Positions 3,482 through 64,000 are shown, numbered from the stretch's first letter. The stretch is 64,000 nt of DNA from an uncultured bacterium (GCA_903892035.1 CAITGV010000001.1:91624-155623), one strand, 5' to 3'. Numbers and translations are program-made. The notes: generated by a model from the sequence alone, not told the origin.

Positions 3482-3482
3482 G

Positions 3483-4247: not shown

Positions 4248-4250
4248 ACG

Positions 4251-4691: not shown

Positions 4692-4954
4692 ACATACTTT
4701 TTTTGCGTGTTAGTAATAAATCCGAGGATGAGACGCAAAAAGCCCACCACATGGGTTGAGGGCTATTAGACCCTCCATACACCTTTCGATGTACGGCGAT
4801 CAAGCAAACCCCATATGATGGGTTCTTTATGCTTGATCGACTTTATTCGCCATGCCGCCGCTGAAGCGAGGGTTTAGGCTACTTACTTATTCAGTTGTTA
4901 ACAAACAATAGCATTTTCGACGCTATTATTCCAGACCATGATATCGCAGTACTG

Positions 4955-5012
4955 TGAAATCACTGAGGGGAGTTACCAACACGTTGCCAACAACGACCCC
5001 TCAGTGATTTCA
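4955..5012. promoter_or_regulatory. perfect 16-bp inverted repeat (TGAAATCACTGAGGGG / CCCCTCAGTGATTTCA) with a 26-bp spacer, just upstream of the recombinase start
   Basis: Read directly from the sequence. Lies 25 nt upstream of the probable start codon at 5037. Candidate operator or att core. Confidence 0.5.
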
Positions 5013-5036
5013 ACGATCTGCGTCATTAATATATAC

Positions 5037-20509: not shown

Positions 20510-20665
20510 CTCTGACGGCCGTCCGAAGTGCTACCTTTACCCACGACACCAGGTGTCGTGGGTTTACCGATTTTCCGCTATCGCGGATTTTCGGTAAATT
20601 TTACCAAGGGCTCCCCTTTGTAAACAGTAAGTCCCCGGAATAAATTAATACTCTACGGGGACCAC
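20510..20665. other. GC-rich, highly structured intergenic element (candidate ncRNA or REP-like cluster)
   Basis: At least 4 hairpins or palindromes: AGCACCTCTGACGG/CCGTCCGAAGTGCT, CCCACGACACC/GGTGTCGTGGG, TACCGATTTTCCGC/GCGGATTTTCGGTA, GTCCCCG/CGGGGAC. Confidence 0.4.
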
Positions 20666-30113: not shown

Positions 30114-30156
30114 AATATTCTGAATTTTTGTGTAAAAGAATGTTTTATATAATTTT

Positions 30157-30202
30157 TTCGCGCTTTACCCTCTCTACGGGGGCTCCGACACGCTCTAAAA
30201 TT
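30157..30202. repeat. 46-nt intergenic motif, copy 1 (TTCGCGCTTTACCCTCTCTACGGGGGCTCCGACACGCTCTAAAATT)
   Basis: Matches copy 2 at 61179..61224 at 44 of 46 positions. Confidence 0.7.
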
Positions 30203-30521: not shown

Positions 30522-32564
30522 TTAAGAAATCATTTTGAGAAAATTTGCCTCATCTAGCACTTCAACAGATAGCTTTTTAGCTTCGGTGAGTTTCGAGCCA
30601 GAATTTTCCCCCGCTACAACAAAAGAAGTATTTTTTGACACAGAGCTCGCGACTTTTCCACCCAAAGAATTTATCCGCATCTTTGCCTCATCGCGCGACA
30701 ATGCCTGCATTGTGCCTGTAAGAACAAAAATCTTGCCAGTAAGTTTTCCATTTTCAACTTTTTTCGCATTTTCAATTTTTACACCATTATTTTCCAATTT
30801 CTCTATAAAATGTAAATTAGTTTTCTCTTGAAAAAAATCATAAACACTTTTTGAAACCACAGGCCCAATATTTTCTATTGAATTAATCTGGCTCGCACTT
30901 GCATTCATTATTTTCTTTAAATTTCCAAAATTATTTGCAATATCCTTCGCAGTCTCTTCCCCGACGTGCATAATACCTAAAGCAAATAAAAATCTCCAAA
31001 GTAAAACTTTTTTTCTTTCTTGAATCGAAGCCACAATATTTTGTGCAGATTTTTCTCCAAATCTTTCTAAGCCTGAAAGGTCGGCTTCAGTGAGAGTAAA
31101 CAAGTCGGCAGAGTCCGAAATTAGTCCTTCTTCCTTGAGTCGGTCAAGAATTTTTGGTCCAACTTCATATATTTCAAAAACATTTACGAAGTGTTGCATA
31201 CCACGACGGTTTTTTGCCGGACACTTTTTATTCACACAATAATAAGCGACCGACCTGTCGGTCGTCCTGAGCGTAGTCGAAGGACCACCCAGGAGTTGCT
31301 CAACTTCGCTTTCGCATACTGGACATTTTGTAGGAATTTTAATTTTTTTCTCTTTACCAGATCTAAGTTTTTTCAAAACTTCCACGACTTCGGGAATTAC
31401 GTCCCCTGCTTTTTGAATAACCACAGTATCACCAATTCTTAAATCCAACCTTTCAATCTGATCAAAATTGTGAAGTGTAGCTTTTGAAACAGTTGAACCA
31501 GCGACAAGCGTTGGTCTAAAATGCGCAAGCGGTGTGATAACTCCAGTTCTTCCCACGTTCAGTGTAACATCTAGTACAATGGTCGTTGCACGTTCTGCTG
31601 GAAATTTATACGCAATTACAGCACGAGGATCTTTTCCTACCACACCCAATCTTTCGTATACCTCTGTACTATCAATATTTACTACTACCCCATCTATACC
31701 AAAAAGTAATGAGTCACGAATTTTTCCGATTTCCTGAATAAATTTATAAACTTCATTTAAATTTTTTATTTTCTTTGTATTTGAGTCTGTCATGAAACCA
31801 AATTTTTTCAATAAGTCATGTTTCAATGAATGCAGTTTTATTTTATCTTTCCAACTTTCATCTATTTGAGCAATTTCATAAGCCATAAAATCGAGCTCAC
31901 GCTCGCGTGTCAGACTTGGGTCAAGTTGACGAAGTGAGCCCGCTGCTGCATTTCTTGAATTTGCAAAAAGTGGTAAACCTTTTTTTTCATTTTGAACATT
32001 CAATTTTTTCCAAACACTTTTTTTCATCAGTGCTTCTCCACGAACTTCAAGAAGTTTTGGATATGGGGCTTTTAGACTAAGTGGTACAGTGGCAACCATT
32101 TTCAAATTTTCTGTAATATCCTCGCCTACCTCCCCGTCACCACGAGTAGCACCACGCACAAATTTTCCATCTTCATACAAAAGAGAAATTGCTAAACCAT
32201 CAAATTTTAATTCACAAAAATACTCAAATTTGGGAGCTAAGCTCCCAAAAAATTTAATATTTCGCTTTTCCCAGGCAAAGAGTTCTTCTTCAGAAAAAAC
32301 ATTTCCAAGTGAAAGAAGTCGAACACTGTGTTGAACTTTTTTAAATTTATCGAGAGGTCTACCAGCAACACGTGAAAGTATGCTATTTGGGTCGTGAAAT
32401 TCTGGATTTTCTTTTTCTAATTGCATTAATTCACGAGTAAGAGAATCATATACATCATCAGAAACAGCCGGATCGTCTGCCACATGATATCGATACCTTA
32501 AATCAGAAATCTCCTTACGGAGCTTGTTTATTCTAGCCAAAATAGCACTTTTGTCTGTACTCAT
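30522..32564 (-). CDS. ligA: NAD-dependent DNA ligase
   Basis: KxDG adenylation motif (CELKFDGLAISL), OB fold, Zn finger (CPVCESEV), HhH repeats and C-terminal BRCT. Confidence 0.9.
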   Translation of the reverse strand: MSTDKSAILARINKLRKEISDLRYRYHVADDPAVSDDVYDSLTRELMQLEKENPEFHDPNSILSRVAGRPLDKFKKVQHSVRLLSLGNVFSEEELFAWEKRNIKFFGSLAPKFEYFCELKFDGLAISLLYEDGKFVRGATRGDGEVGEDITENLKMVATVPLSLKAPYPKLLEVRGEALMKKSVWKKLNVQNEKKGLPLFANSRNAAAGSLRQLDPSLTRERELDFMAYEIAQIDESWKDKIKLHSLKHDLLKKFGFMTDSNTKKIKNLNEVYKFIQEIGKIRDSLLFGIDGVVVNIDSTEVYERLGVVGKDPRAVIAYKFPAERATTIVLDVTLNVGRTGVITPLAHFRPTLVAGSTVSKATLHNFDQIERLDLRIGDTVVIQKAGDVIPEVVEVLKKLRSGKEKKIKIPTKCPVCESEVEQLLGGPSTTLRTTDRSVAYYCVNKKCPAKNRRGMQHFVNVFEIYEVGPKILDRLKEEGLISDSADLFTLTEADLSGLERFGEKSAQNIVASIQERKKVLLWRFLFALGIMHVGEETAKDIANNFGNLKKIMNASASQINSIENIGPVVSKSVYDFFQEKTNLHFIEKLENNGVKIENAKKVENGKLTGKIFVLTGTMQALSRDEAKMRINSLGGKVASSVSKNTSFVVAGENSGSKLTEAKKLSVEVLDEANFLKMIS

Positions 32565-33126: not shown

Positions 33127-33715
33127 AAGGCCATTGATTTAAAAATTCAACATAAGAAATATTTTTATTTGTTCCACCATCTACCCACGATACAGTAGAA
33201 GTAACTTTCACTTCATCAATACCAGAAGTATTCATATGTTCAATTTTAATAGCACGGTAATATGCTTTGCCAGCATTAGAAGTTGTATCATATAAACCCG
33301 TACTTGCATCATAATACAAAGCGCAACCATTCATTGGCCCCATAGGACAAGGTGTACCAACAAGGTCAATGTCTGTTGGAATTATATTACAACCACCGTC
33401 GGTACTACACGCAGGAACATAATTTGATAAAAACAAACTCCAACCAGAAACATTGGGGTTATTTGGAAAATCTAAAATATAAGTATCTCTTGCATTTCTG
33501 ACTAATTCAATACCCTCTTGGGCTAAATATGAAGCGACTAATTTATTTTTGGATGCAAGCACTTGACCTTGGCTTGACGTAGAAAGTGACATAAGTGCAG
33601 TAATAGAAACAGTAAAAATCATTACAGCGACAAGTGTTTCTAAAACTGTAAAACCTTTATTTATTTTTTTATTAAAATTATTTTTCATATTATGGCGCAA
33701 TTGGACCCATATCAA
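33104..33715 (-). CDS. type IV pseudopilin/minor pilin (start possibly 33688)
   Basis: Prepilin N-terminus KGFTVLETLVAVMIF. Confidence 0.6.
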   Translation of the reverse strand: MIWVQLRHNMKNNFNKKINKGFTVLETLVAVMIFTVSITALMSLSTSSQGQVLASKNKLVASYLAQEGIELVRNARDTYILDFPNNPNVSGWSLFLSNYVPACSTDGGCNIIPTDIDLVGTPCPMGPMNGCALYYDASTGLYDTTSNAGKAYYRAIKIEHMNTSGIDEVKVTSTVSWVDGGTNKNISYVEFLNQWPYAFSAHP

Positions 33716-34355
33716 GTTGTCTTTTCGACACTGTTGTCTCTAAGTTAAATGGAATAGTTACATCTTGATATGTAGCTGTACCAGATAATCTAATTATCAC
33801 CCTTGCTTGACCGTCTGTATCTGCAACAAGGTTACTTGCTGGTACACTAGAACCAATAACTTGAAAACCAGAATGATTTGGATCTATTTGAACATCAACA
33901 GCTGAAGTTAAGGTGTGTAAACTTGGATCATTTGGATCAAAATTATTACTTATTCCAAGAGATTTTTTTATGACATATGAACCATTTGTATCCTGCCCAA
34001 TATAATATACTATCCTATTTTCATCTCCTTGATCAGTATTCTCCACACCCCTAATTGCTAATAAATAACTAAAACTAGATGTCGAACAATCTCCTGACAC
34101 AGAAACATCCCCACCTCCACAATGATAATCACTCCCAAGTCGAATATTTCTTGTCATATCTTCCATTGCAAAAGAAAGATTATCCATTGCGCTACGAAGT
34201 TTTCGGGTCACATTATTTGTCTTATTGACTTCATAAATTGCCCCCATGCTCATTGTCGCCAAAATTGTAAAAATACCAACTGCAACAACCATTTCAATGA
34301 CTGTAAAACCTTTATTAAATTTTATTTCTTTTATAAATTTCATATTATTCAACAC
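33690..34355 (-). CDS. type IV pseudopilin/minor pilin
   Basis: KGFTVIEMVVAVGIF prepilin signature. Confidence 0.6.
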   Translation of the reverse strand: MLNNMKFIKEIKFNKGFTVIEMVVAVGIFTILATMSMGAIYEVNKTNNVTRKLRSAMDNLSFAMEDMTRNIRLGSDYHCGGGDVSVSGDCSTSSFSYLLAIRGVENTDQGDENRIVYYIGQDTNGSYVIKKSLGISNNFDPNDPSLHTLTSAVDVQIDPNHSGFQVIGSSVPASNLVADTDGQARVIIRLSGTATYQDVTIPFNLETTVSKRQLDMGPIAP

Positions 34356-34935
34356 TTATCTGACCAGTCGAAAAAACTCTTATAGTTTTAGTACGCGAAG
34401 TATTTGCTGATTGTATATCAATTTCAATATCAGAAATTGAATTATTACTTTGATTACGAAAAGTAGCATCAGTATACGGGCGAATAAATGTTACATCTAA
34501 ATCCTGACCTGGAGGATATGAATTCATACCATTGTTTGCAATTAAATTTGAAACAACAATATTGCTAGGTAATTTTAATATATCAAGACACTCTGGAGGG
34601 TTACACACAGATAAAGAAGAAGTGTAAGTCTTATTTCCAGTTGTATCAATAAAATTTACAATTTTATAAAATCCATCACTGTGATCCATCGACAAATGAA
34701 CTCCGTAACTAGGTGCTAAAGTACCAAATGCAGAGTTTTGTAAACCAGAAACTGAATTTACTTGAGCTTTGTGAATATCAAGAGCAATGTCTTGTGCGAC
34801 ATTTGTTAAATTTGCATTGTCGCCAAAGTCTCTAAAATTAAAAAGTACAATGCCGGCAATTATTGCAAAGATACCAATTACAACAATTAGCTCAATAAAT
34901 GTAAAACCTGAATTTTTATTTTTTATATCAATCAT
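34345..34935 (-). CDS. type IV pseudopilin/minor pilin
   Basis: SGFTFIELIVVIGIF prepilin signature. Start set at the internal Met (MIDIKNK). Confidence 0.6.
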   Translation of the reverse strand: MIDIKNKNSGFTFIELIVVIGIFAIIAGIVLFNFRDFGDNANLTNVAQDIALDIHKAQVNSVSGLQNSAFGTLAPSYGVHLSMDHSDGFYKIVNFIDTTGNKTYTSSLSVCNPPECLDILKLPSNIVVSNLIANNGMNSYPPGQDLDVTFIRPYTDATFRNQSNNSISDIEIDIQSANTSRTKTIRVFSTGQISVE

Positions 34936-34936
34936 T

Positions 34937-35734
34937 TTAAAAAGTAAACCACGATGCCAAAGTAACAAAACCAATTTGACAAAAATATGCTAAAGCCGTT
35001 CCTAAAATAAGAAAAGGTGCGAAAGGAATTTCGGTCCTCATTGTCACAGTACTTTTTGAAATTTTCTTATACAATTTACTTACCAAAAGCAAAATGATTG
35101 AAAAAATTGCTCCTATCCAAAATGACAATAAGAAAGCTGCGACGCCCTTTGAAAGCCCGAGAAAAAAACCGACAGCAAGAAGGAGCTTCGCATCTCCAAG
35201 CCCTACCCACTTCCCTTTTGAAATAAACCACACGAGAGCAATTGGTAGTGCCAGTATTGGACCAGCAAGTAAAGTATAAATATCTGGGGAATGAAAACTA
35301 TTTGTATAAAAATTAAAAAATACTGAAAAAAGTGAGACTAGAATCAATGGGTATACTAACCTATCTGGAATAATTTTATGTCGCAAATCATAAACTCCGA
35401 TAACGATAAGTACAGAAAATACCCACATTGAGTAAACCATTTCAGAATATGGTACATGACGAAGGAAAAGTAAAAGAAAAACTAAACCAGAAAGAGCTTC
35501 GACTGCAGGATACTGCCATGAAATTTTACTGTTACAGTGCCCGCACTTCCCTTTTTGCACCATAAAACTAAAGATTGGAATAAGCTCACTACTTCTCAAA
35601 GTTTCTCCACAAGACATGCACATTGACCGGCCTCCTAAACCTTTGCCACTTTGAAAACGTAAAATGACAACATTTAAAAAACTTCCGATAATAACTCCGA
35701 AAACAAAAACTATTACATCTGTAAGAATTTCCAT
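34937..35734 (-). CDS. pilD: prepilin peptidase (A24 family)
   Basis: N-terminal CxxC..CxxC zinc motif and polytopic TM peptidase body. Confidence 0.8.
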   Translation of the reverse strand: MEILTDVIVFVFGVIIGSFLNVVILRFQSGKGLGGRSMCMSCGETLRSSELIPIFSFMVQKGKCGHCNSKISWQYPAVEALSGLVFLLLFLRHVPYSEMVYSMWVFSVLIVIGVYDLRHKIIPDRLVYPLILVSLFSVFFNFYTNSFHSPDIYTLLAGPILALPIALVWFISKGKWVGLGDAKLLLAVGFFLGLSKGVAAFLLSFWIGAIFSIILLLVSKLYKKISKSTVTMRTEIPFAPFLILGTALAYFCQIGFVTLASWFTF

Positions 35735-35770
35735 ATTTTTATTATACCACCTCAAGCACAAAAACAAATA

Positions 35771-36415
35771 TTAATTTTGTTTCATTATGTCGTAGCAGTA
35801 TTTACCTGAATCATAGTCAGTATTTGAATTCATATTATGAGTGCAACCACCGGTTACACCCTCAGCTGTACCATCAGCAACATTTGTGGCATATTGAGGA
35901 CTACCACACCTATATCCAGGTCGATTTGTAAGGACATTTGTATCATCACTAATAAAATCTGAGTCTGAATTTATCACAGAATTGCTTTTCTCTAATGAAA
36001 CAGCGAGGTGGTAACTATTACAATATACTAAATCGCTCGCTGTAGGTGTTGATGAGGTGTGAAAACTTGGAGCCTGCATACTTAAAGCTGTGTAATGATA
36101 ATTTGAATTTCCTCCTAGTGGATCTACTGGAACAGAGGGCAGATAACCTTCAGCAACTAAACGATTTAAGTTATTTGCCGACGGATTCAAGCTTCCATCG
36201 TAAAATGGATAATATCCGTATTTATCATAATAAAGAGTAAGTGCAGTTTGAATGCTATGTATTTCTTCAATACGTTTTGCGTCGCGAGCTTTTGCTCGAG
36301 CATCTGCCATTGATGCTAAAATCACTCCAGCCAAAATACCAATGATTGCAATTACAACCAAAAGCTCAAGAACAGTAAAACCTTTTTTAATAGAATTAAA
36401 TTTATTTAAACTCAT
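35771..36415 (-). CDS. type IV pilin-like protein
   Basis: KGFTVLELLVVIAIIGILAG signature. Confidence 0.7.
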   Translation of the reverse strand: MSLNKFNSIKKGFTVLELLVVIAIIGILAGVILASMADARAKARDAKRIEEIHSIQTALTLYYDKYGYYPFYDGSLNPSANNLNRLVAEGYLPSVPVDPLGGNSNYHYTALSMQAPSFHTSSTPTASDLVYCNSYHLAVSLEKSNSVINSDSDFISDDTNVLTNRPGYRCGSPQYATNVADGTAEGVTGGCTHNMNSNTDYDSGKYCYDIMKQN

Positions 36416-36425
36416 ACATACTCAC

Positions 36426-36869
36426 TTAAGAACAAACTCCAGTTGAAAGCGTACAAGTCACATTTGTGCTTGTTGTAGATGCGCTAAAAATAAGTGTCGG
36501 AGGTGAAGTAAGAGCACCGCCATTTGAAACTGGGAGGTACGCTGCACCTGTAGGCAATGCTGGCCACTTTGCATTGTGTCCAGACAAAGCTCCATATGGA
36601 GATGTTCCGCTTACACAAATTGCAACTCCAGTAGTCGGTGTCCCTGTTGCACTTGGCTGAGAACCAGCTGTGCCAGTACTTACATAACCACTATCATATG
36701 CGCAATTATTTAATTCTGAAACTACTCCGCTAAGTGTCGAAATTGTCGCCGCTCTGATAGACTTTGCTTTCGAAGAACTCATAGATGTTAAAACTATCCC
36801 AGTAATTATCATTATGATTGCAATAACAACCAATAATTCTAGAACTGTAAAACCTTTACTTTTTTTCAT
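36426..36869 (-). CDS. type IV pilin
   Basis: KGFTVLELLVVIAII signature, ~147 aa. Confidence 0.75.
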   Translation of the reverse strand: MKKSKGFTVLELLVVIAIIMIITGIVLTSMSSSKAKSIRAATISTLSGVVSELNNCAYDSGYVSTGTAGSQPSATGTPTTGVAICVSGTSPYGALSGHNAKWPALPTGAAYLPVSNGGALTSPPTLIFSASTTSTNVTCTLSTGVCS

Positions 36870-36924
36870 ATATACAAAGGAAAATATTATTAATTAATAT
36901 GTAAACTATTATATCATTCCCCAA

Positions 36925-36963
36925 ACAAAAAACCACTCCGACTGAAGCCAAAGTGGTTTTTTG
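36925..36963. terminator. rho-independent terminator after the pilin gene (minus-strand)
   Basis: AAAAAACCACT...AGTGGTTTTTTG hairpin with U-tract. Confidence 0.5.
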
Positions 36964-36985
36964 TTAATAAATAATCAAGAAATGA

Positions 36986-37438
36986 TTATGAGCAAGTTAG
37001 ATTTGTTGTAGTACCTTGTACACAATGAATATCCGCAAAACCAGTTCCCCCTACAAGATAGAAATCAGTACCACTTGCCAATGTACCCGCTGTAAATGCT
37101 GTTGGAGTTGGACCAGCTGCTGAAGAATATTGGTAAGGGTTGCCTGCAGGTAATGCTGGCCAAGTAACTGTGTGATTACCACCAGTACAAATTTGTGTTG
37201 TTCCAGGTGTTACAGGATTGTTAAGTGTAAGGGAATCATCATAACACAAAGTCATTTCTGTTCCCAAACCAGAAACTGTTGCCAAAGCTGAAGCTTTTTT
37301 AGCCTTGTTTGTAGCACCTGACAATGATGTCAAAACGATAGATGCAAGAATACCGATGATTGCGATAACGACGAGCAATTCGATCAATGTAAAACCACGA
37401 CTTTTAAGAACGGGTAAACCTTTTTGTTTATTAAACAT
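36986..37438 (-). CDS. type IV pilin (major pilin candidate)
   Basis: Leader MFNKQKGLPVLKSRG, then FTLIELLVVIAIIG. Confidence 0.8.
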   Translation of the reverse strand: MFNKQKGLPVLKSRGFTLIELLVVIAIIGILASIVLTSLSGATNKAKKASALATVSGLGTEMTLCYDDSLTLNNPVTPGTTQICTGGNHTVTWPALPAGNPYQYSSAAGPTPTAFTAGTLASGTDFYLVGGTGFADIHCVQGTTTNLTCS

Positions 37439-37506
37439 ATATATAAAAAAATTAATTAATAATAAAATAATAATACAACCTAGTTACTATTATACTCCTC
37501 TCAAAA

Positions 37507-37536
37507 CAAAAAACCACCTAGGTGGTGGTTTTTTGT
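37507..37536. terminator. rho-independent terminator after the pilin gene
   Basis: AAAAAACCACC-TAGG-TGGTGGTTTTTT. Confidence 0.5.
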
Positions 37537-37559
37537 TAATAACTTAATCAAATTCCAAA

Positions 37560-38003
37560 TTATGAACAAATAAGATTTGATGTTGCAGACCATCCACAAG
37601 TAATCGTAGGTAAAGTTGCACTTGTTAGATAAAACGAATGAACAGCGTTACTTGTTAATGCAGTATCTGCTGTAGTACCAGAATATGTACTTGCAGTTGA
37701 GTATTGATAATCTCCCGGAAGAGTTGGCCAGTTTACAACTGTGTGATTAGCTGCATTTGAACCCAAAGTTCCAGTAACTCTACAAATTGATGCTAAAACA
37801 ATTGGTTGAACTGGTGTAGCACTATCGTCTATACATAATATCAATTCTGTTCCTACACTTGAAACTGATGCCAAAGCTGAAGCTCTCTTAGCTTTGTTTG
37901 TTGCTCCTGACAATGATGTCAAAACGATTGATGCCAAGATACCGATGATTGCAATAACAACGAGCAATTCGATCAATGTAAAACCTTTTTGTTTATTTAA
38001 CAT
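37560..38003 (-). CDS. type IV pilin
   Basis: KGFTLIELLVVIAIIG signature. The longer ORF to 38288 was rejected. Confidence 0.75.
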   Translation of the reverse strand: MLNKQKGFTLIELLVVIAIIGILASIVLTSLSGATNKAKRASALASVSSVGTELILCIDDSATPVQPIVLASICRVTGTLGSNAANHTVVNWPTLPGDYQYSTASTYSGTTADTALTSNAVHSFYLTSATLPTITCGWSATSNLICS

Positions 38004-38139: not shown

Positions 38140-38205
38140 GCAATATAGGGGGCTGTGGATAAGTATCCCCCCTCTCCTTTACAAGAAGAGGGGTTGGGGA
38201 GAGGT
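38140..38205. terminator. GC-rich hairpin pair immediately downstream of pilC (minus-strand)
   Basis: GGGGG..CCCCCC and CCTCTCC..GGAGAGG stems, followed by a U-run on the minus transcript. Confidence 0.4.
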
Positions 38206-54170: not shown

Positions 54171-55283
54171 ATGAATAAACTGCATTCAAAACTATATACT
54201 GCAAAAAAACTCCTACTGAGCCATTTGGAAGTGAACGGTAAAAGAAACACTTTCTCTAAGCTAGATTTTTCAAAAAGCACTCTAACCGCTTTAGAGCAAG
54301 ATGGGCTAATAAAATTTGATAAGCCTTTATTGAGCAAGAAATATATCAATAATTATCAAAGTGCCAGAAAAACATTTGAAAGCATACAAGAAAAAAAGCG
54401 TCTAGCTTCTCTTTCTTTTGGTGGACCTCGAAGCTCGTATGGTCTTGAGCAGACAAAGAAAGAATTTGAAAATTATCTAGCTGATAAATACTGTAGTCTC
54501 GGAAAAGGGCTATATGAAAAACTTCAAGAAAGCCCAGAGATTGAAATTGACCACTTAAGTTTTCAGAGTATCGCAACGAAAGATTTTGCAAACGATTCTT
54601 TAAGTTTTAACCTAGAATTTTCACCTGAAAAAATACAAGAGTTTTTGAATGAGAAAATGGATTTGTTTATTACAGACGAGTTAGAATTGTCTGATGACCA
54701 AGCCCATAGATTTTTAAGCTATGAGAAACAAAAAGAGCAGTTTTCTATTGGTATTGTGAAGCTAACAAATACTGGATATTCTGCAAATAATTTAAAGATA
54801 GATTATATGCAGATTTTTAAGAAAGAGGATTTATTGCAAACAAACTTTGTTGAAACAGCTCTAGCTATGGAAAGAGAGGGATTGATAGAGGTAAAAAATA
54901 TCATAGAAACAACGCCAGCAAACCCTGTAGTTATAACTAGTCAAGATGTATTTAAATATCCTACGATTATACAGCTTAAGGTTCTTGGTAAATTCTCGCC
55001 TTACTATGAACAAGTTTATAAGAAATACTCACCTAAAACACAGGAATCAACCCAAGAAGCCTTAACGCCAAACAATAAGAAATTGAAACTACTTGAAAAA
55101 TTGAAAGAGGAAAAAGATTTAATGCCTAAATGGAAAACAGTTATGGATATTCATCCCCCTAAATTCTCTAGTTGGATGAGAGAGTGCGGTATTGATGACT
55201 ACACCCAGCTAAGAAATATTCTTGATAGTCTTCAAGAAGAAGAATTACTTATTTCTATTAAGTCTGTTAATCCAGCTATGTGA
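54171..55283 (+). CDS. hypothetical protein (cargo of the integrated element)
   Basis: 370-aa ORF with no recognised motif. Confidence 0.35.
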   Translation: MNKLHSKLYTAKKLLLSHLEVNGKRNTFSKLDFSKSTLTALEQDGLIKFDKPLLSKKYINNYQSARKTFESIQEKKRLASLSFGGPRSSYGLEQTKKEFENYLADKYCSLGKGLYEKLQESPEIEIDHLSFQSIATKDFANDSLSFNLEFSPEKIQEFLNEKMDLFITDELELSDDQAHRFLSYEKQKEQFSIGIVKLTNTGYSANNLKIDYMQIFKKEDLLQTNFVETALAMEREGLIEVKNIIETTPANPVVITSQDVFKYPTIIQLKVLGKFSPYYEQVYKKYSPKTQESTQEALTPNNKKLKLLEKLKEEKDLMPKWKTVMDIHPPKFSSWMRECGIDDYTQLRNILDSLQEEELLISIKSVNPAM

Positions 55284-55801
55284 TGATGAATTATCTACAA
55301 ATACAATTTCCTGAAGACTTTGAGAAAAGGTATAAAAAATACAAGGACCAGATTTTGCATTCCTCTACTAAAAATACTTTCTCAAAGATACCCTCAGATG
55401 AACCAACAGTTGCCACCCAAGAAACAGAAAATCAAAAAGGTGTTAAATCAAACCCTGAATCAGGCAAGAAAATGGCTTCAATTGAGTATAACCCAATCAC
55501 TGGTGATGGAATTGTAAATACAACAAGTTTTAAATTCAAAGACCACCAGCCTGAATATAGGTTATTTAAACTTCTGTGCGAAAAGGTTAATAATAAAATT
55601 CAACGCTATGACGTTCTTGTAGCAATCCATTTTTATGAAGATGGTGCAGATGTTGAACCAGCTAGAAAGTCTCTTGAGACTGAAGAAATAAATAAAGTTG
55701 TTAAAAAAATCAGAGGGAAAACTGGGCTTACTACAAAACAGCTAGTAAATAACAATGGAAATGTAACATTACTCGGGAATATAGTACCAAATCAAACCTA
55801 A
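55280..55801 (+). CDS. hypothetical protein
   Basis: Overlaps the upstream stop by 4 nt. No motif. Confidence 0.3.
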   Translation: MMMNYLQIQFPEDFEKRYKKYKDQILHSSTKNTFSKIPSDEPTVATQETENQKGVKSNPESGKKMASIEYNPITGDGIVNTTSFKFKDHQPEYRLFKLLCEKVNNKIQRYDVLVAIHFYEDGADVEPARKSLETEEINKVVKKIRGKTGLTTKQLVNNNGNVTLLGNIVPNQT

Positions 55802-56167
55802 AACCATACTGAATCTAGTCTAAATCGCATCTAACTCGAATAAGTGAATAAATATAGGATGATACTAAGCCTATATTTTTTTTGGCTGGGGAAATCTTGA
55901 ACCCCCTGTAAGCCCTTTGCTTACTCGGCAGGTGCCTCACGGCGTTCAAGAACCTACCGAGTAAATAGTGGGCTTGCCTATGTTACCAGAACAAGCCATA
56001 ACAGAATACAAGAAGCTCTACGAAGCCCGTTACGGCGTCGTTTTAAGCGATGCTGAGGCATCGTTGCGGGCGAATAACCTTGTAAATTTCTATAAGGCTA
56101 CTTTGGGGTCGGAACATCCAAATACAACGAAAGTGGTCGATGAACCTCGTTGTAATTATTAACAAAT

Positions 56168-56515
56168 ATGGCAAAAATAAATTGTCATAAAATTTACAGC
56201 AGTATGAGCTACACAGTAAAAGAACTAGCAAACGAGTTAGGAATATCAGAAAAAACAATTTTCCGTTGGATTGAAAATGGTTTAAGAATTGTAGATGGAA
56301 GCAAGAAACCCATCCTGATAATGGGTGTGGAAGTAAAAGATTTTACAAGAAGAAAAGATTCAAAAAAGAAAGTAGGTAAAATTAAAAGGAATGAGTTTTT
56401 GTGCCTAACGTGTAAGAAAGGGAGACGTGCAAAAAGAGGTTCAATTAAGAAACTGAAGAGCAAGAAACTAGGAGAATGTTATGTCTGTAACGGGAAAATG
56501 AGCAGAACAATCTAG
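56168..56515 (+). CDS. excisionase/MerR-like HTH protein with C-terminal zinc ribbon
   Basis: YTVKELANELGISEKTIFRWIENG HTH and CLTC..CYVC. Immediately upstream of the tyrosine integrase. Confidence 0.45.
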   Translation: MAKINCHKIYSSMSYTVKELANELGISEKTIFRWIENGLRIVDGSKKPILIMGVEVKDFTRRKDSKKKVGKIKRNEFLCLTCKKGRRAKRGSIKKLKSKKLGECYVCNGKMSRTI

Positions 56516-56594
56516 CTCGACCAAAAGGACTATGTAGTATTGTCTCTTCTAGTTTAAATGTCCATTATTAACTATTAACGCATCTATTAAAATT

Positions 56595-57701
56595 ATGACA
56601 AAAACAACGCTCGAAAATGAGCAAATAAAGAGGGATTTTTTTGACCAACTAAAGGGAGCAAAAGGGTTTGCAAAAAGCTCAGTAGTAGCTTTTTCAGATG
56701 CAATATCCCAGTGGCAAAAATTCACTGAAAATGAAAGTTTTTCAAAGTTTACTAAAGAAGAAGCGACAGCTTTTGTGGAGTGGTTAAGCACCAAGCCATC
56801 TAAAACAAAAACTGGTAAAATCGCTCTAGTTACTCAAGACAATTATCTTCGCAGAGTGAAGAAGTTTTTTGAGTGGCTGTCTGAGCAATCGGGATATAAA
56901 AGCAAAATATCAAAAAATGAAGTAGAGTGGCTGAGGCTTTCCAAGACCGATGCTCGTATTGCAAGAATGGGGACTACCCGCACAGAGCCTGTATTTGAGG
57001 AGGTAAAAAAAGTTATAGAAAGTATAAAAGGTAAAAGTGAAGTAGATATGAGGGATAGAGCCATTATTTCTCTAGCATTGATTACAGGGGCTCGTATTTC
57101 CGCCATTACCTCTTTGAAAATGCGTAGCTTCGACAAGAAAAAGAATGTCGTGTATCAAAGTCCAAAAGATGGTATTAAAACAAAAAGCTCAAAGCTGATA
57201 GCTACCTTGATTTTCCCTATTGAATGGCGTGAACCAGAAAGATATTTTGTCGAATGGTATGAGTATCTAGAGTCAAAAGGTTTCCGCCCAGATGACCCTA
57301 TTTTCCCAGCAACATTTAATGATATAGGTAATAAAAATACTAGCAAAGCAGTGGTCAGCAAGCGTTTTTGGAGTAATGCTAACTCTGCACGAAATATCTT
57401 TAAAACAAGATGTTTGGATGCTGGCATTCCTTACTTCAATCCTCACTCCTTTCGTCACCTAATTGTGGGTATGTGGATGGAGGAGATACTTCCCGAGAAA
57501 TATAAAAAGGCTATCAGCCTGAATCTTGGTCACGAAAGTGTTTCTACTACCTTTGATTCATATGGTCATAGTAATATGACCCAAAATGAGGTCTTTGGAA
57601 TTATTAAAAATCTCAAGAATTTAAAAGCAGAGAGTAAAAGCACTTCGATAACACAAGAAGAAAGGGAGGCTATCGAGAAGCTACTTAAAAGAAGTGCATA
57701 A
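56595..57701 (+). CDS. tyrosine site-specific integrase
   Basis: N-terminal SAM-like domain. Catalytic R (ITGARIS), HSFRHL (HxxR) and the SYGH Tyr motif. Confidence 0.8.
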   Translation: MTKTTLENEQIKRDFFDQLKGAKGFAKSSVVAFSDAISQWQKFTENESFSKFTKEEATAFVEWLSTKPSKTKTGKIALVTQDNYLRRVKKFFEWLSEQSGYKSKISKNEVEWLRLSKTDARIARMGTTRTEPVFEEVKKVIESIKGKSEVDMRDRAIISLALITGARISAITSLKMRSFDKKKNVVYQSPKDGIKTKSSKLIATLIFPIEWREPERYFVEWYEYLESKGFRPDDPIFPATFNDIGNKNTSKAVVSKRFWSNANSARNIFKTRCLDAGIPYFNPHSFRHLIVGMWMEEILPEKYKKAISLNLGHESVSTTFDSYGHSNMTQNEVFGIIKNLKNLKAESKSTSITQEEREAIEKLLKRSA

Positions 57702-57742
57702 CACCACTTGCTATGTAAAGAATAGTAAAGTATACTAGATAT

Positions 57743-58690
57743 ATGAATAATAATAAATTGGGTAAATTAAGCAAGGTAGACTTGCGGGAAATTTGGAAAA
57801 ATGAAGAGTATGACTTTTCAGCTTGGCTGGCTGAAGAAGAAAATCTTGCTCTTTTGTCCGACGAACTTGGTGTTTCAATAAAATTGATTGAGAGAGAAGC
57901 GGGTGTTGGAAAATACAGCTTGGATATTTTAGCGGAAGAGGAAGGCACGGGGCATAAAATCGTGATAGAGAACCAACTTGAAAATACTGACCACGACCAT
58001 TTGGGAAAAATCATCACGTACTCTGCTGGGCACGATGCGAAAATCATCGTTTGGATTTTCAAAGACATCTGTGAAGAGCACCGCAGTGCGATTGACTGGC
58101 TCAACGACAACACAGGCGATGACCTTCACTTTTTCGCTGTGAAGTTGGAAGTATGGAAAATCAACGAATCCGAATCAGCTCCGAAGTTTCAAATAATTTG
58201 TAAGCCGAACGAGTGGAAAAAAATTGTAAAACATAGTTCGGGAAGTAAGGATTTGGGAAGTACTGAATTGAAAAAACTTGATTTTTGGACAAAACTCAAA
58301 TCATACGCTTTAGATAAAAAAGTAACTCTATTCACACGAACACCCAACCCGTATCACTGGTATGATATATCTATTGGAACTTCTGGAGCTCATATTTCAC
58401 TCACTATCGGTATTAGAGAAAGTAAAATTGGTTGTGAACTTTATATTGACGATAACAAGCCCTTATTTGAGCATCTCAAAACAAAAAAGATGGAGCTTGA
58501 AGGACAGCTCAACGGGAAGCTTGAGTGGATAGTAGCAGAAAAGGCGTGTCGCATCGTGTTACGAAAAGAAAATGCCAACTTGGATGATGAAGAAAATACC
58601 AGCACCTTATTTGATTGGATGATTGAAAAAGCGGTCGTTTTTCATAAAGTATTTAGTCCGTTAGTAAAGCAATACAAAAATGAGCAATAA
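57743..58690 (+). CDS. hypothetical protein with PD-(D/E)xK-like core (possible DUF4268-like)
   Basis: YSLDILAEEEGTGHKIVIENQLENTDHDHLGKIITY block. Confidence 0.35.
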   Translation: MNNNKLGKLSKVDLREIWKNEEYDFSAWLAEEENLALLSDELGVSIKLIEREAGVGKYSLDILAEEEGTGHKIVIENQLENTDHDHLGKIITYSAGHDAKIIVWIFKDICEEHRSAIDWLNDNTGDDLHFFAVKLEVWKINESESAPKFQIICKPNEWKKIVKHSSGSKDLGSTELKKLDFWTKLKSYALDKKVTLFTRTPNPYHWYDISIGTSGAHISLTIGIRESKIGCELYIDDNKPLFEHLKTKKMELEGQLNGKLEWIVAEKACRIVLRKENANLDDEENTSTLFDWMIEKAVVFHKVFSPLVKQYKNEQ

Positions 58691-58871
58691 AGATTTTTAC
58701 ACAGCCAAAGAACTGGCAGATAAACTGCGAGTAAATATAATGACCATCTATCGCTATATAGGTGCGAAAGGTGCAAAGAAATTAAATGCCTATAAATTTG
58801 GCAAGGAATTTAGAATTGATAAGAAAGAGTTTGATAGTTTCTTGAACAAGGCAAAAACTAATGGAAAATAA
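58680..58871 (+). CDS. excisionase-family HTH DNA-binding protein
   Basis: YTAKELADKLRVNIMTIYRYI HTH. Overlaps the serine recombinase start. Confidence 0.5.
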   Translation: MSNKDFYTAKELADKLRVNIMTIYRYIGAKGAKKLNAYKFGKEFRIDKKEFDSFLNKAKTNGK

Positions 58872-60468
58872 AACTGTCAAAATGATATATGGTGGCTACC
58901 ACAGAAAATCTACCGAATCTGAGGATAGGCAGGTTCTTTCTATTGATTCTCAAATTGATGAGGGTAAGAGAATCGCAGATAGCTTAGGGATAAAAGTGAA
59001 ACCTGAGCATATTCTTTCAGAATCAAAATCAGCCAAAGTAACTGGTAAGCGATTAAAGTTCCAGCAAATGCTCAGTATGATTGAGCGAGGAGAAATAAAT
59101 GGAATCATTGTATGGCACGCAGACAGGCTTTCAAGAAATGCTATGGACTCAGCTTTACTTATTGACCTGATAGATAAAGGAAAACTTATTGAAATAGTTA
59201 CGCCAGCACAAACATTCAGGAATACTCCGTTAGATAAATTTATGTTTATGTTCCAGTGTAGTCAGGCAAAAATGGAGAACGACAAAAAAGGCGTTGATGT
59301 AACAAGAGGACTTCATAAAAAAGCTAGTCTCGGAATGTATCCTGCACCAGCACCTGTTGGTTACAAAAATGATAAGTATGCAGAGAAAGGAAACAAAGTG
59401 CCACTAGTAGATGCGGAAAGATTCCCACTGGTGCGAAAAATGATAGACCTTATGCTTACAGGAAATTATACTGTGGCGGAGATATGGAGAATCGCAAGAA
59501 ACGAATGGGGCTTTACTATGCCGAGTGGAAAGAAAATCAGTAGACCTACTGTTTATAGAATTTTCTCAAACCCTTTTTATTATGGGAGATACGAATATCC
59601 TCTCAGAAGCGGTAAGTGGTATGACGCTATCCATACTCCGATGATGGATGTGGAGGAGTACGACAAGATTCAATTTATCCTTGGCAAGAAAGGTAAACCT
59701 AGACCGAAGTCTCACATATTTGATTTTACAGGAATGATGCACTGCGGAGAGTGCGGAGCAAGTATTACAGCCGAGACAAAAATTAAAAGGCAGAAAAATG
59801 GGAACATTCATACCTATGTTTACTATCACTGCACTAAAAGAATAAATCCAAACTGCACGCAAGGCTCTATTGAGGAGAAAGATTTAAAGAAGCAAATTGT
59901 AGCTGAAATTGAGAGTATTGAAATACCGCCAGAATTTCATAGTTTTGCTATGAAATGGTTTAAGAAAGAGAACGAAAAAGAAATTGATGGTCGTAATGCT
60001 GTTATAAAAGCCAATGAGAAAGCCTACAAGGCTTGTTTAGCGAAGATTGACGGCTTAACCGATATGAGAGCGGGTGGCGAAATATCAGCCGTAGAATTTG
60101 CTGAAAGAAAAATAAAATTCCTTGCAGAAAAGAAACAACTTGATAATTTATACGGTGATACAAGTAAGAGAGTAGATAGGTGGCTAGATACTGCCGATAA
60201 TATGTTTACTTTTATTGAAAACGCAAAAGATAAATTTGAAAATGGAACGATTCAGACAAGACGCTCAATACTTTCAACACTAGGTTCAGACCTCATACTA
60301 AAGGATAAAATACTCAGTATTGATATAGATAAATCACTCTTTCCAATAAAAAGAGTCTCAAAAGAGGCTAATGCAATTAGTAAACGGTTAGAACCTCTCA
60401 AAACTATTGATAAACAAAGAGAATTTGACCTTTTGTGTGATAAAAATCCCGTAATGCGGAGGCGGTGA
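58861..60468 (+). CDS. large serine recombinase (paralog of the 5037..6368 gene)
   Basis: YHRKST catalytic Ser, ADRLSRN, and zinc ribbon CGECGA...YYHCTKRINPNC. By eye about 45 % identical to the first recombinase. Confidence 0.85.
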   Translation: MENKTVKMIYGGYHRKSTESEDRQVLSIDSQIDEGKRIADSLGIKVKPEHILSESKSAKVTGKRLKFQQMLSMIERGEINGIIVWHADRLSRNAMDSALLIDLIDKGKLIEIVTPAQTFRNTPLDKFMFMFQCSQAKMENDKKGVDVTRGLHKKASLGMYPAPAPVGYKNDKYAEKGNKVPLVDAERFPLVRKMIDLMLTGNYTVAEIWRIARNEWGFTMPSGKKISRPTVYRIFSNPFYYGRYEYPLRSGKWYDAIHTPMMDVEEYDKIQFILGKKGKPRPKSHIFDFTGMMHCGECGASITAETKIKRQKNGNIHTYVYYHCTKRINPNCTQGSIEEKDLKKQIVAEIESIEIPPEFHSFAMKWFKKENEKEIDGRNAVIKANEKAYKACLAKIDGLTDMRAGGEISAVEFAERKIKFLAEKKQLDNLYGDTSKRVDRWLDTADNMFTFIENAKDKFENGTIQTRRSILSTLGSDLILKDKILSIDIDKSLFPIKRVSKEANAISKRLEPLKTIDKQREFDLLCDKNPVMRRR

Positions 60469-60542
60469 GATTCGAACTCACGGTCCTTTAAAGGGACGAC
60501 GGTTTAGTAAACCGTTGATTTAAACCACTCATCCACGCCTCC
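60457..60542 (-). tRNA. class-II (long variable arm, Ser-like) tRNA with anticodon loop UUACUAA, i.e. apparent anticodon ACU. CCA is not encoded.
   Basis: Hand-folded. Acceptor GGAGGCG/CGCCUCC, T-arm GUGAG-UUCGAAU-CUCAC, anticodon stem ACGGU/ACCGU, variable stem GUCC/GGAC. The last 12 nt are overlapped by the recombinase stop. Confidence 0.55.
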
Positions 60543-60610
60543 AGTGGTAGCTTAACTTATAACATTTTATGGAGAAAAAAACAAAAATATGCTACTCTTT
60601 CTTGGTATTT

Positions 60611-60695
60611 GGAGACGTGTCGGAGTGGTCTAACGTACCTCCTTGCTAAGGAGGCAGGCTTCACGGCCTCGCGAGTTCGAATCTCGCCGTCTCCG
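60611..60695 (+). tRNA. tRNA-Ser (anticodon GCU)
   Basis: Acceptor GGAGACG/CGUCUCC, anticodon stem CCUCC/GGAGG with loop UUGCUAA, long variable arm, T-arm GCGAG-UUCGAAU-CUCGC, G73. Confidence 0.85.
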
Positions 60696-60697
60696 CT

Positions 60698-61174
60698 ATG
60701 AAGAAAATTCCTATAGGTATCGTTCACGGAAGATTTCAGCCACTACATAGTGGGCATTTGAAATACATACTTGCAGGACTCGCAAGATGTGATTTTTTAT
60801 ATATTGGGGTTTGTACACCAAAACTTTGCACTAAAGAAGAGGCAGAAAAAACTGGCTTCCCCTGCCTACCAGAACAAAACCCACTTTCTTTTATTGAAAG
60901 AAAAAAAATGATAGTGGAAGCATTGAAAGAAAAAAATATTCCAAATAAAAAATATAAAATTATTAAATTTCCAAGTGATTATAAAAATATTGAAAAATAC
61001 ATTCCTAAAAATACTACATTTTTTATGACGGCATGGAATGACGAAGGGGAAAATAAGGTAAAAGCTCTGCGAAGGCTTGGTTTAAAAGTTTCAGTTTTAA
61101 GTTCCATAAAAAAGGAGAAAGGTGAAAAAAGTGGGACTGAAATAAGAAAAATATTCGCTCGTGCGGTAACTTAA
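60698..61174 (+). CDS. archaeal-type nicotinamide-nucleotide adenylyltransferase-like nucleotidyltransferase
   Basis: GRFQPLHSGH motif. Confidence 0.55.
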   Translation: MKKIPIGIVHGRFQPLHSGHLKYILAGLARCDFLYIGVCTPKLCTKEEAEKTGFPCLPEQNPLSFIERKKMIVEALKEKNIPNKKYKIIKFPSDYKNIEKYIPKNTTFFMTAWNDEGENKVKALRRLGLKVSVLSSIKKEKGEKSGTEIRKIFARAVT

Positions 61175-61178
61175 TTTA

Positions 61179-61224
61179 TTCGCGCTTAACCCTCTCTACG
61201 GGGGCTCCGACACGCTCAAAAATT
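61179..61224. repeat. 46-nt intergenic motif, copy 2
   Basis: TTCGCGCTTAACCCTCTCTACGGGGGCTCCGACACGCTCAAAAATT. Matches copy 1 at 44 of 46 positions. Confidence 0.7.
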
Positions 61225-62343: not shown

Positions 62344-62550
62344 ATGAGTAAAAAGAAAAAACTTTATGTTGTTATTGCTGTATTTATTGTAATAATCATC
62401 ACATATCTTATAGTTAGTAAGACCATCCCTACCCCAGGCTCACAGCCAGCAACTCAAAACAACGCTACTGACCAAAATGATTTTCCAAGTGCGCAAAATT
62501 CTCCAAACGAAGTAGCACCCCCAGATGTTACTCACAATGCAACTAAGTGA
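62344..62550 (+). CDS. small TM protein
   Basis: Single TM helix (LYVVIAVFIVIIITYLIV). Confidence 0.3.
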   Translation: MSKKKKLYVVIAVFIVIIITYLIVSKTIPTPGSQPATQNNATDQNDFPSAQNSPNEVAPPDVTHNATK

Positions 62551-64000
62551 TTCCATATCAAAACATTTTCGTCTAGACTCTCAAACAGAGAGTAGCTTAA
62601 AACGCCTAGGTCTTGAAAAAATAAAGGACCTTATTTTTTATTTTCCAATTCGATATGGCGATATGAGTGCACTTAAAAATGTGGCTGATCTTGTCGCAGG
62701 AGAGACCGCGACTCTATATGGCACAATAAAAAATCCAAAAACAAAAAAAGGTTTTGTTTCAAAGATACCAATGGCTGAAGCAACATTTGAAGACCTATCG
62801 GGAAGCATAAAAATTATTTGGTTTCACCAAGCATATTTAGCAAAAATGGTTCACGACGGTCAATCTGTAAAACTTACCGGAAAAGTTTCAGAAAATAAAA
62901 ATGGTTTATACCTCTCAAATCCTGAATTTGAGAAAGTTTCCACAATGCCCATTGATAGCAACTCCTCACTTTTCAAAAATGGACAGAATAATGAGACAAT
63001 CTTTGGTGGCGGCTATCCTGTTTACAAAGAAACAAAAGGTCTTTCTTCAAAATGGATTTATCATACAATAATAAAAATTTTCAAAAGCGGGCTTTTAGAC
63101 AACATATCTGAATACTTACCAGAAAAAATATTAGAAAAATATCATCTACCGAAACTAAAAACAGCACTTATTTGGATTCACTCTCCAAAGAAGAAAGAGG
63201 ACGCCGAAAGTGCAAGAAAACGTTTTGCTTTTGAAGAAGTATTTTTTATTCAACTTCAACGTGCACATGAAAGAAATAATTTTGAAAAAAATAATGCATA
63301 CATTGTAAATACGGACAAAAATGATATAGAAAATTTTGTGAATCGTTTTCCATTTCAAATGACAAAATCTCAAGAGAATGCAATAAATGCAATTTTGGAT
63401 AATATGGAAAAATCAAACCCTATGGCTCGCCTACTCGAAGGTGATGTGGGTAGCGGAAAAACTGCTGTCGCTGCAACATCTGCGTATTCTGTTATAAAAA
63501 ATAGACCACCAAAGCCACAGGCCTTGCCTAGGGGAATTCCCCTAGGCAAGGCCTGTGGTGAAAGGCAAGCTTTTGGAAATCTTCAAGTCGCATATATGGC
63601 ACCAACAGAAATTCTTGCGACTCAACATTTTGAAAATTTTATTCAGTACTTCAAACACACCGGAATATCCATTGGATTAATTACTGGAAGTGGTTGCAGA
63701 AAATTTCCAACCAAAGTCGCATCTGCGCGTGAACCATGGACAAATATTTCTCGTGCACAACTTTTGAAATGGGTTGCAAATGGTGAGATTCCAATATTAA
63801 TTGGAACTCATGCTCTTATCCAAAAATCTGTAAAATTTAAAGATTTAGCACTTGTGATTGTCGATGAACAACATCGTTTTGGAGCCCTGCAACGCGCTCG
63901 ACTTGCAAAAAAAGAAAATTTTGCACCACACTACCTTTCAATGACTGCAACCCCAATTCCCCGCACATTGGCTCTCACAATTTATGGTGACCTCGACCTT
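62537..64000 (+). CDS. recG: ATP-dependent DNA helicase RecG (3'-partial, runs off the window)
   Basis: N-terminal wedge domain, helicase motif I GDVGSGKT, MAPTEILATQH, motif II VIVDEQHRFG. Alternative start at 62525. Confidence 0.85.
   Translation, partial: MQLSDSISKHFRLDSQTESSLKRLGLEKIKDLIFYFPIRYGDMSALKNVADLVAGETATLYGTIKNPKTKKGFVSKIPMAEATFEDLSGSIKIIWFHQAYLAKMVHDGQSVKLTGKVSENKNGLYLSNPEFEKVSTMPIDSNSSLFKNGQNNETIFGGGYPVYKETKGLSSKWIYHTIIKIFKSGLLDNISEYLPEKILEKYHLPKLKTALIWIHSPKKKEDAESARKRFAFEEVFFIQLQRAHERNNFEKNNAYIVNTDKNDIENFVNRFPFQMTKSQENAINAILDNMEKSNPMARLLEGDVGSGKTAVAATSAYSVIKNRPPKPQALPRGIPLGKACGERQAFGNLQVAYMAPTEILATQHFENFIQYFKHTGISIGLITGSGCRKFPTKVASAREPWTNISRAQLLKWVANGEIPILIGTHALIQKSVKFKDLALVIVDEQHRFGALQRARLAKKENFAPHYLSMTATPIPRTLALTIYGDLDL
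63515..63558. repeat. perfect 44-bp GC-rich palindrome inside recG, in frame
   Basis: CCACAGGCCTTGCCTAGGGGAA|TTCCCCTAGGCAAGGCCTGTGG. Encodes PQALPRGIPLGKACG between helicase motifs I and Ia. Confidence 0.8.

Follow-up and report, generated by a model that had tools for sequence, protein, structure and literature searches.

The subject of this analysis is a 64,000-nucleotide (nt) stretch of DNA from an uncultured bacterium (GCA_903892035.1, CAITGV010000001.1:91624-155623), referred to throughout as the window, with positions counted from its first letter. The host belongs to the Candidate Phyla Radiation (CPR), within the Paceibacteria/Nomurabacteria group. At the far end of the window, the recG coding sequence (62537-64000, plus strand; the first 488 of 746 codons, cut by the window end) contains a perfect, GC-rich palindrome of 44 base pairs (bp) at 63515-63558. 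The evidence supports reading this palindrome as an in-frame insertion, specific to its lineage, that occupies a surface loop of RecG helicase, and the same codon position in many orthologs hosts hairpin-forming inserts of unrelated sequence. With about as much to be said for the view as against it, the palindrome may be a short, GC-rich selfish element capable of forming a hairpin or cruciform, similar to Rickettsia palindromic elements (RPEs) and mitochondrial GC clusters, that is tolerated as a flexible loop of RecG.

The palindrome consists of two 22-nt arms, CCACAGGCCTTGCCTAGGGGAA|TTCCCCTAGGCAAGGCCTGTGG, that meet without a spacer, and both strands read identically. Its GC content is 64%, compared with 37% across the window. 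No longer palindrome occurs in the window; the runners-up have arms of 16-17 nt and are terminator-like hairpins flanked by A/T runs, while the arms found in composition-matched shuffled windows reach 10 nt at most. Folded as single-stranded DNA, the surrounding 91-nt region has an energy of -29.3 kcal/mol (z = -6.6), and none of 200 dinucleotide shuffles folded equally well. Only one of the three reading frames is open through the palindrome, and it is the frame that RecG uses, in which the arms encode residues P331-G345 (PQALPRGIPLGKACG). The ends read AAAG|CCACAGG...CCTGTGG|TGAA, and one EcoRI, two AvrII and two StuI sites lie inside. An original prediction, made from the sequence alone, had described a perfect 22+22 GC-rich palindrome with these restriction sites, situated in frame and free of stops between the helicase motifs GDVGSGKT and MAPTE, and the arms, composition, restriction sites and translation all agree with it. 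The imperfect extensions to about 70 nt that it also proposed do not hold up. Beyond the arms, only one of eight flanking positions pairs without gaps, and the folds extend the stem at most by a short outer helix across an asymmetric loop of 11-12 nt. No terminator or promoter was called at the palindrome, and Rfam searches at gathering and permissive thresholds returned generic hairpins only, the best of which reached about 23 bits where the gathering scores are 41-190. A match to the family 'ssNA-helicase' (21 bits, gathering score 41.5) was rejected as chance. With no terminator call and all Rfam matches below gathering scores, an intrinsic terminator or a known structured RNA was rejected as an identity for the element. 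Two other palindromes of the window, 22174-22202 and 20539-20563, were considered as further in-frame inserts and rejected, their sites being a gene end and intergenic DNA, respectively.

The full-length product (P0001, 746 residues, 100% identical) carries the RecG_wedge, DEAD and Helicase_C domains and matches Thermotoga maritima RecG (1GM5) with E = 4.6e-122. From the translation, helicase motif I (Walker A), GDVGSGKT, is encoded at 63452-63475 on the plus strand, corresponding to the invariant columns G306-T313, and motif Ia, MAPTE, at 63608-63622 on the same strand, corresponding to the invariant M358-E362. Between the post-Walker A helix and the motif Ia strand lies a hypervariable loop, referred to here as site 1 (63509-63589, plus strand; residues ~325-351). 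The nearest ortholog (P0002, from locus L001; 74% identity) has a minimal loop at this site, reading ...IKNRP-GK-QAFGNLQ (RPGKQAF), and a further minimal-loop ortholog, P0011, reads RP-PK-QDF. The window protein reads ...IKNRP-PK-[PQALPRGIPLGKACGER]-QAFGNLQ, which is 17 codons more than P0002. By this comparison, the insertion comprises 51 nt (17 codons; 63515-63565, plus strand; residues 331-347) and consists of the palindrome followed by TGAAAGG. Alignment with related RecG proteins, one of the checks originally suggested, therefore confirms the insertion. Its predicted size of about 25 extra residues applies only when the protein is measured against Escherichia coli and T. maritima RecG, where the excess is ~25-30 residues; against the closest orthologs it is 17. 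In the solved structures 1GM5 and 9WM0, the post-Walker A helix runs almost directly into the motif Ia strand, and residues ~319-351 of the window protein have no counterpart. A second suggested check, modelling of the protein, places the insertion in low-confidence coil: in an AlphaFold2 model with a mean predicted local distance difference test (pLDDT) score of 74.5, the insert runs between a helix at 312-324 and a strand at 355-359, with pLDDT below 50 at 333-344. Judged from this model, the insert is predicted to add 17 unstructured residues to a disordered surface loop between motifs I and Ia.

Site 1 of RecG is a hot spot, in that one codon position hosts unrelated hairpin-forming inserts in many orthologs. 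Across 120 RecG orthologs, the segment from GSGKT to MAPTE is 37 residues long in 55, which have the minimal loop, 41-47 residues in 45 and 50-80 residues in the remaining 20, and the long inserts of this last group are mutually unrelated in peptide sequence. At the DNA level, the sample consisted of 80 orthologous loci from species-representative genomes, taken as the unbiased set, and 10 chosen orthologs, nine of them with long inserts and the tenth being the minimal-loop P0002. The reading frame is intact across the loop in all 80 unbiased loci. The long inserts fold with z values from -1.8 to -8.7, whereas 49 minimal loops have a mean z of 0.02. Two inserts at this site share the architecture of the window palindrome and are unrelated to it in sequence. 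At locus L089, the arms are 22 bp long with one G.T pair and enclose a 6-nt loop; at L091, they are at least 20 bp long around a loop of the same size (z = -8.2 for each). Together with L085 and L090, L091 forms one family with a drifted stem, in which five of 20 pairs have changed on both sides and none on one side only. The stem score of this family was matched by none of 500 shuffles, and slid registers are 37-44% paired compared with 84% in the true register. Across related inserts, both arms vary in concert and keep their Watson-Crick complementarity. Since pairing is of the Watson-Crick type only, spacers are of zero length in several members and two-sided changes occur without G.U intermediates, a DNA-level process such as templated correction or template switching is pointed to rather than selection on an RNA hairpin.

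Other inserts at site 1 fall into recognizable types. Types A, B and C and the window insert each exchange a two-residue minimal loop for exactly 19 residues. On a neighbour-joining RecG tree built without the loop, the insert families are dispersed, with minimal-loop proteins between them, and type A (PPLPPPRFDYKTPLLRQEGK) turns up at three distinct positions. The DNA of type A is a double hairpin. Compared between loci with diverged flanking recG codons, it shows 96-100% identity; in the insert, 18-19 of 19 third codon positions agree, compared with 41-47% in the flanks. A metagenome-wide scan for the 31-nt core of type A detected two further copies, each of them at this same site of recG, and one type A copy is intergenic (L006). 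The flanking codons for P-K (CCAAAG) and F-G (TTTTGG) are mutually complementary, and the site forms a small native hairpin in some orthologs. The left arm of the window palindrome starts like type B inserts, PPK(T)PQA. In one genome, a diversity-generating retroelement comprising an RVT_1 reverse transcriptase and bAvd (L083:12261-13666) lies directly downstream of a recG with a type A insert, a juxtaposition that is probably coincidental.

Sister palindromes occur at other sites as well. A census of palindromes covered 1.45 Mb of fetched DNA from related loci, sampled around recG. Most of the long palindromes in it are intergenic, AT-flanked and terminator-like, and the GC-rich ones internal to open reading frames (ORFs) concentrate in recG. 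In the 80 unbiased loci, seven of nine GC-rich ORF-internal palindromes of at least 14 pairs are in recG, which holds 18% of the ORF-internal bases; the excess, estimated at about 16-fold, has a binomial p of 1.6e-4, to be read with the facts that common descent links three of the seven and that the DNA was sampled within 10 kb on either side of recG. The GC-rich palindromes occupy at least six positions of RecG, all of them loops and several of low confidence in the model. Some form families that extend beyond recG. The family TCCGCC..AGGCGGATCCGCCT..GGCGGA is present in the recG genes of L048 (~residue 150) and L032 (~residue 186) and in a 195-residue ORF of L022, and is always translated as SA(R/Q)GGSA(S/L)GG. 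A second family, CCGCCCGAATGA...TCATTCGGGCGG, is found in the recG of L044 and a 278-residue ORF of L027, and its translation is RPNE(F/V)GHSGG. A third, GCCTGCCTGC(C)GGCAGGCAGGC, occupies the site-1 loop of L076 and three other loci, and the core CCTTCGACTWCGCTCAGG is shared by the LigA gene of the window, a pair of recG loops and two further loci. Dispersal of sister families over non-homologous sites is the behavior expected of mobile or copy-pasted DNA. Aside from these, a polypyrimidine/polypurine hairpin family, CCCCTCTCCTT-loop-AAGGAGAGGGG, with arms resembling anti-Shine-Dalgarno and Shine-Dalgarno sequences, is intergenic in four genomes (window 38169-38193; L001:690-712; L026:783-809; L030:978-1002) and resembles part of the L035 recG insert.

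The zinc-finger loop of the NAD-dependent DNA ligase LigA is a second hot spot with hairpin inserts. In the window, LigA (30522-32564, minus strand) has ~7-10 extra residues (LLGGPSTTLRTTDR) in this loop, and the in-frame GC-rich element at 31255-31295 (minus strand) combines the dispersed core CCTTCGACTACGCTCAGG with a small hairpin. Of 120 LigA orthologs, 28 have a CxxC...CPAK segment of 31 residues, while about one third carry an additional 25 to 49 residues drawn from recurring peptide families. The zinc-finger Pfam match is lost in many of the orthologs with long inserts. The commonest long insert, represented by L093, forms an imperfect hairpin of ~90 nt (z = -3.6). The ligA gene of L093 is also adjoined by N_methyl pilin genes.

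Among the observations that support a selfish-element origin of the recG palindrome are that it is far beyond chance, that its site is hypervariable with strongly folding long inserts, that insert families are spread over the RecG tree, that type A is conserved at third codon positions and has an intergenic copy, that stem pairs of the L091/L085/L090 family are compensatory, that the insert falls in low-confidence coil and is open only in the frame used, that the LigA loop is a second hot spot, and that sister families are present at non-homologous sites; RPEs and the GC clusters of var1 are known precedents. Under such a mechanism, palindromes would be copied to new places through single-stranded hairpin intermediates, either by template switching at stalled replication or by a trans-acting hairpin nuclease. 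Copies would persist only where they fall in frame and free of stops in permissive disordered loops, and templated correction within the palindrome would keep the arms perfect. The element would have no needed function in RecG, with the protein merely tolerating it. With no second copy of the exact sequence found, movement of this copy itself is inferred rather than observed; the route by which such elements would travel is likewise presumed. Several findings weigh against this origin. The search for further genomic copies that had been proposed at the outset returned none at up to three mismatches in the 64-kb window (~13% of the 488-kb contig), none of the arms or palindrome in the 1.45 Mb of related loci (blastn-short), and none in public genome, metagenome and viral contig collections. 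The 30-residue loop, searched with HMMER against 1.84 billion protein representatives, gave just three matches, to repetitive, multi-stretch proteins of 38-44% identity that are not copies, with the sensitivity of this search limited in that the representatives are 50%-identity clusters that may lack the insert. The palindrome has neither terminal inverted repeats around a distinct core nor a clear target-site duplication, and no transposase, including the Y1 type associated with repetitive extragenic palindromes (RAYT), was found among ten scanned ORFs of the window, itself 64 kb of a genome of at least 488 kb, or in the Pfam matches of neighboring genes. In addition, many unrelated palindromes meet at one codon boundary and four types have an identical length of 19 residues, which is odd for independent transposition; the shared codon position, which the original prediction did not foresee, is accounted for no less well by a site-specific process than by random transposition. 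Type A is also nearly confined to recG, where five of its six known exact-core copies reside.

A serious rival, possible if on balance doubtful, is a purely local template-switch origin, in which intramolecular template switching inverted and duplicated a pre-existing variable loop sequence or turned an imperfect hairpin into a perfect one. Site 1 would then be a mutational hot spot and the copy would never have moved. Quasi-palindrome template-switch mutagenesis, as described by the Ripley model and by thyA and lacZ reporters in E. coli, makes imperfect inverted repeats perfect with both arms changing together. The L091/L085/L090 family behaves in this way, all of its changes being two-sided and none passing through G.U, and perfect Watson-Crick pairing without a spacer is itself a DNA-level signature. 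The window palindrome is a singleton everywhere searched, inserts recur at one codon position, the flanking P-K and F-G codons are complementary with a native small hairpin in some orthologs, and the left arm begins as type B inserts do, all of which favor an event in place. However, a local template is hard to find: compared with 60 nt of flank on each side, the arms share no more than the 7-mer AGGCAAG (p ~0.02-0.04), which is unconvincing. Copying of local DNA at 37% GC leaves arms at 64% GC unexplained, both arms are extra relative to the minimal-loop orthologs, and sister families are demonstrably located at non-homologous sites. Quasi-palindrome mutagenesis is, moreover, a mutational mechanism and not an element family, and alone it fails to explain either GC-rich novel sequence or families at non-homologous sites.

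Function and artefact provide the remaining explanations. That an mRNA hairpin or DNA cruciform regulates recG, by translational pausing, mRNA stability or the binding of RecG to a cruciform in its own gene, appears unlikely. Compensatory changes do maintain the stem, nucleotide conservation in type A is well above synonymous divergence, and recG is enriched over neighboring genes in GC-rich ORF-internal palindromes by seven to two. On the other hand, the element is missing from 46% of orthologs, the closest one included, its position inside recG differs between genomes, and the same families appear in unrelated ORFs and intergenic DNA. The zero-nt loop and lack of G.U pairs also argue against selection at the RNA level, as do the failure of any Rfam family to reach threshold and the absence of a terminator signature against a regulatory RNA. 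Protein-level adaptation would mean that diversifying selection acts on the loop, perhaps for evasion of phage inhibitors directed at RecG or LigA, with palindromy incidental. It would account for hypervariable surface loops in two DNA-repair enzymes and has a slim chance of being correct. It predicts neither perfect DNA palindromes (z = -6.6 to -8.7) nor identical third codon positions, and the inserts are disordered and unrelated in sequence. Hairpin-destroying synonymous recoding is not common at the loop, the data showing the opposite. The slightest chance of all goes to an artefact of assembly, amplification or cloning, an alternative raised in the original prediction on account of the EcoRI, AvrII and StuI sites and in keeping with the ability of chimeric junctions to produce palindromes. 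An artefact is very unlikely because the identical 746-residue protein is found on five NCBI/ENA contigs, the longest of 488 kb and another of 359 kb (for example in ENA ERZ1426842), the arms are not copied from adjacent sequence as in an amplification chimera, and the architecture recurs in independent assemblies from other pipelines, with equivalent palindromes of unrelated sequence at the same codon site in L089 (a Logan run) and L091 (an ENA groundwater metagenome). The insert is also in frame and stop-free, and L089 likewise has nested 6-bp palindromes, in its case NcoI and SacI sites.

Of the known systems, RPEs were the first to be suggested as a parallel. They are ~100-150 bp in length, fall into ten families, and are often found in frame in housekeeping genes as well as in intergenic DNA (PMC10969869). 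As in the window, they are palindromic hairpins placed in frame in unrelated genes of a small AT-rich genome and tolerated in surface regions of the protein. The palindromic hairpin (22+22, z = -6.6) and the non-disruptive, in-frame surface insertion are features common to both. However, an RPE family has dozens of copies per genome and a conserved peptide, whereas the window element is 44-51 nt, perfect and so far a singleton, with one copy in 64 kb, none in public DNA, and dispersal seen only for its sister families in related genomes. RPEs also belong to the genus Rickettsia rather than to CPR bacteria, and the inserts described here cluster at fixed loops of RecG and LigA. Membership among the RPEs was rejected on length, host and the copy number demonstrated so far; what survives of the initial comparison is an in-frame loop insertion belonging to a class of GC-rich palindromes with dispersed sisters. 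The element behaves even more like the GC clusters of yeast mitochondria, a kind also known from other fungi, than like RPEs. In yeast mitochondria, GC clusters are short GC-rich palindromes in an AT-rich genome that include polymorphic in-frame insertions in var1 and are regarded as transposable (PMC8811140). Like the present inserts, these clusters measure tens of bp, are mostly intergenic, are optionally in frame in a coding gene and vary highly between lineages. The resemblance is one of behavior only, given an organellar eukaryotic setting for one and a bacterial CPR host for the other. GC clusters have AG/TAG terminal repeats taken as target duplications, while the window palindrome has only an ambiguous AAAG repeat and no AG/TAG at its ends; the 'byps' coding-region clusters of Magnusiomyces are bypassed in translation, while every insert here has a length divisible by three and no stop codon. 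Nested restriction-site palindromes, another shared trait, are typical of such clusters, as in the PstI palindromes of Neurospora.

Other classes fit less well. Repetitive extragenic palindromic (REP) elements and bacterial interspersed mosaic elements (BIMEs), which are associated with RAYTs, IS200/IS605-like Y1 transposases, are also dispersed families of GC-rich palindromes, 20-40 bp in length, that act as single-stranded hairpins. REP elements are described in one account as carrying a GTAG or CGTC tag (PMC3733652). They are extragenic and high in copy number, and assignment to REP/BIME was rejected for a palindrome that lies inside recG, is single-copy in the window and has no GTAG/CGTC tag. 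A miniature inverted-repeat transposable element was rejected on the grounds that the whole element is palindrome without an internal segment, that flanking repeats are limited to an offset AAAG, and that a target-site duplication model gives 50 nt instead of the observed 51. Translational bypass, as in the T4 gene 60 gap or the mitochondrial 'byps', was rejected since the insertion is 51 nt and stop-free and every insert is a multiple of three.

Within the searched literature, there is no description of in-frame palindromic insertions in CPR/Patescibacteria, and the main known hosts of in-frame palindromic selfish DNA are Rickettsia and fungal mitochondria. If the recG palindrome is such an element, a much shorter, perfect-palindrome version would add a third set of small AT-rich genomes, unrelated to the other two, to these hosts, with the inserts concentrated at fixed RecG and LigA loops. 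These genomes could then serve as a natural system for learning how palindromes arise, stay perfect and are tolerated under reduced repair machinery, and why particular loops of DNA-repair enzymes are frequent hosts. A more speculative and rather improbable extension is that Paceibacteria carry an undescribed class of very short perfect-palindrome elements that prefer fixed surface loops of enzymes acting on branched or nicked DNA (at least six loops in RecG and the zinc finger in LigA), either through a new site-preferring, hairpin-targeted insertion or through a functional link. A link to RecG may be considered because cruciforms and hairpins are substrates of this helicase, and such elements would amount to more than passive RPE-like junk. 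For annotation of CPR genomes, the inserts have the practical consequence of breaking domain detection, as with the LigA zinc finger, and of inflating apparent protein divergence.

Elsewhere in the window, several features suggest integrated elements. Positions 1-6365 form a GC-rich island (~60% GC compared with 37%) that encodes an N6_N4_Mtase DNA methylase, an HTH_Tnp_1_2 protein, a weak terminase-like ORF and a large serine recombinase, and contains a LOOT RNA at 4758-4880 (RF03000, 76 bits). The island looks like a prophage or the remnant of an integrated element. A second integrative module at 54171-60696, just upstream of recG, includes a tyrosine integrase, a DUF4268 protein, an HTH_17 protein and a 535-residue serine recombinase whose gene overlaps a tRNA-Ser at its 3' end. 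Two divergent tRNA-Ser genes are found here 69 nt apart, one on the minus strand at 60456-60542 with an unusual ACT anticodon according to ARAGORN, and the other on the plus strand at 60611-60696 with a GCT anticodon. An N-terminal repeat, D9, is common to both serine recombinases of the window. A 1518-residue ORF (7077-11630, minus strand) combines the superfamily-1 helicase domains AAA_11, AAA_12 and AAA_30 with a weak REase_MTES_1575 match and a C-terminal topoisomerase-type zinc ribbon; from its domain content, it may be a helicase-nuclease related to defence or repair.

Smaller repeats and hairpins complete the window. A 53-nt intergenic element is present in two copies that are 94% identical (30150-30202 and 61172-61224) and share the GC-rich core TTCGCGCTTWACCCTCTCTACGGGGGCTCCGACACGCTC; the element does not fold significantly (z ~ -1), matches nothing in Rfam and is absent from 92 related loci. 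The 76% GC hairpin at 22174-22202 (13-bp arms, 3-nt loop) constitutes the last codons of a CTP synthase (pyrG-like) ORF with the C-terminus ...ATRRRGGK and sits immediately upstream of the next minus-strand gene. Finally, seven tandem paralogous short genes on the minus strand at 33615-37997 have in common a conserved segment of 53 nt at the 5' end (repeat family D1) and probably represent a pilin-like gene array.

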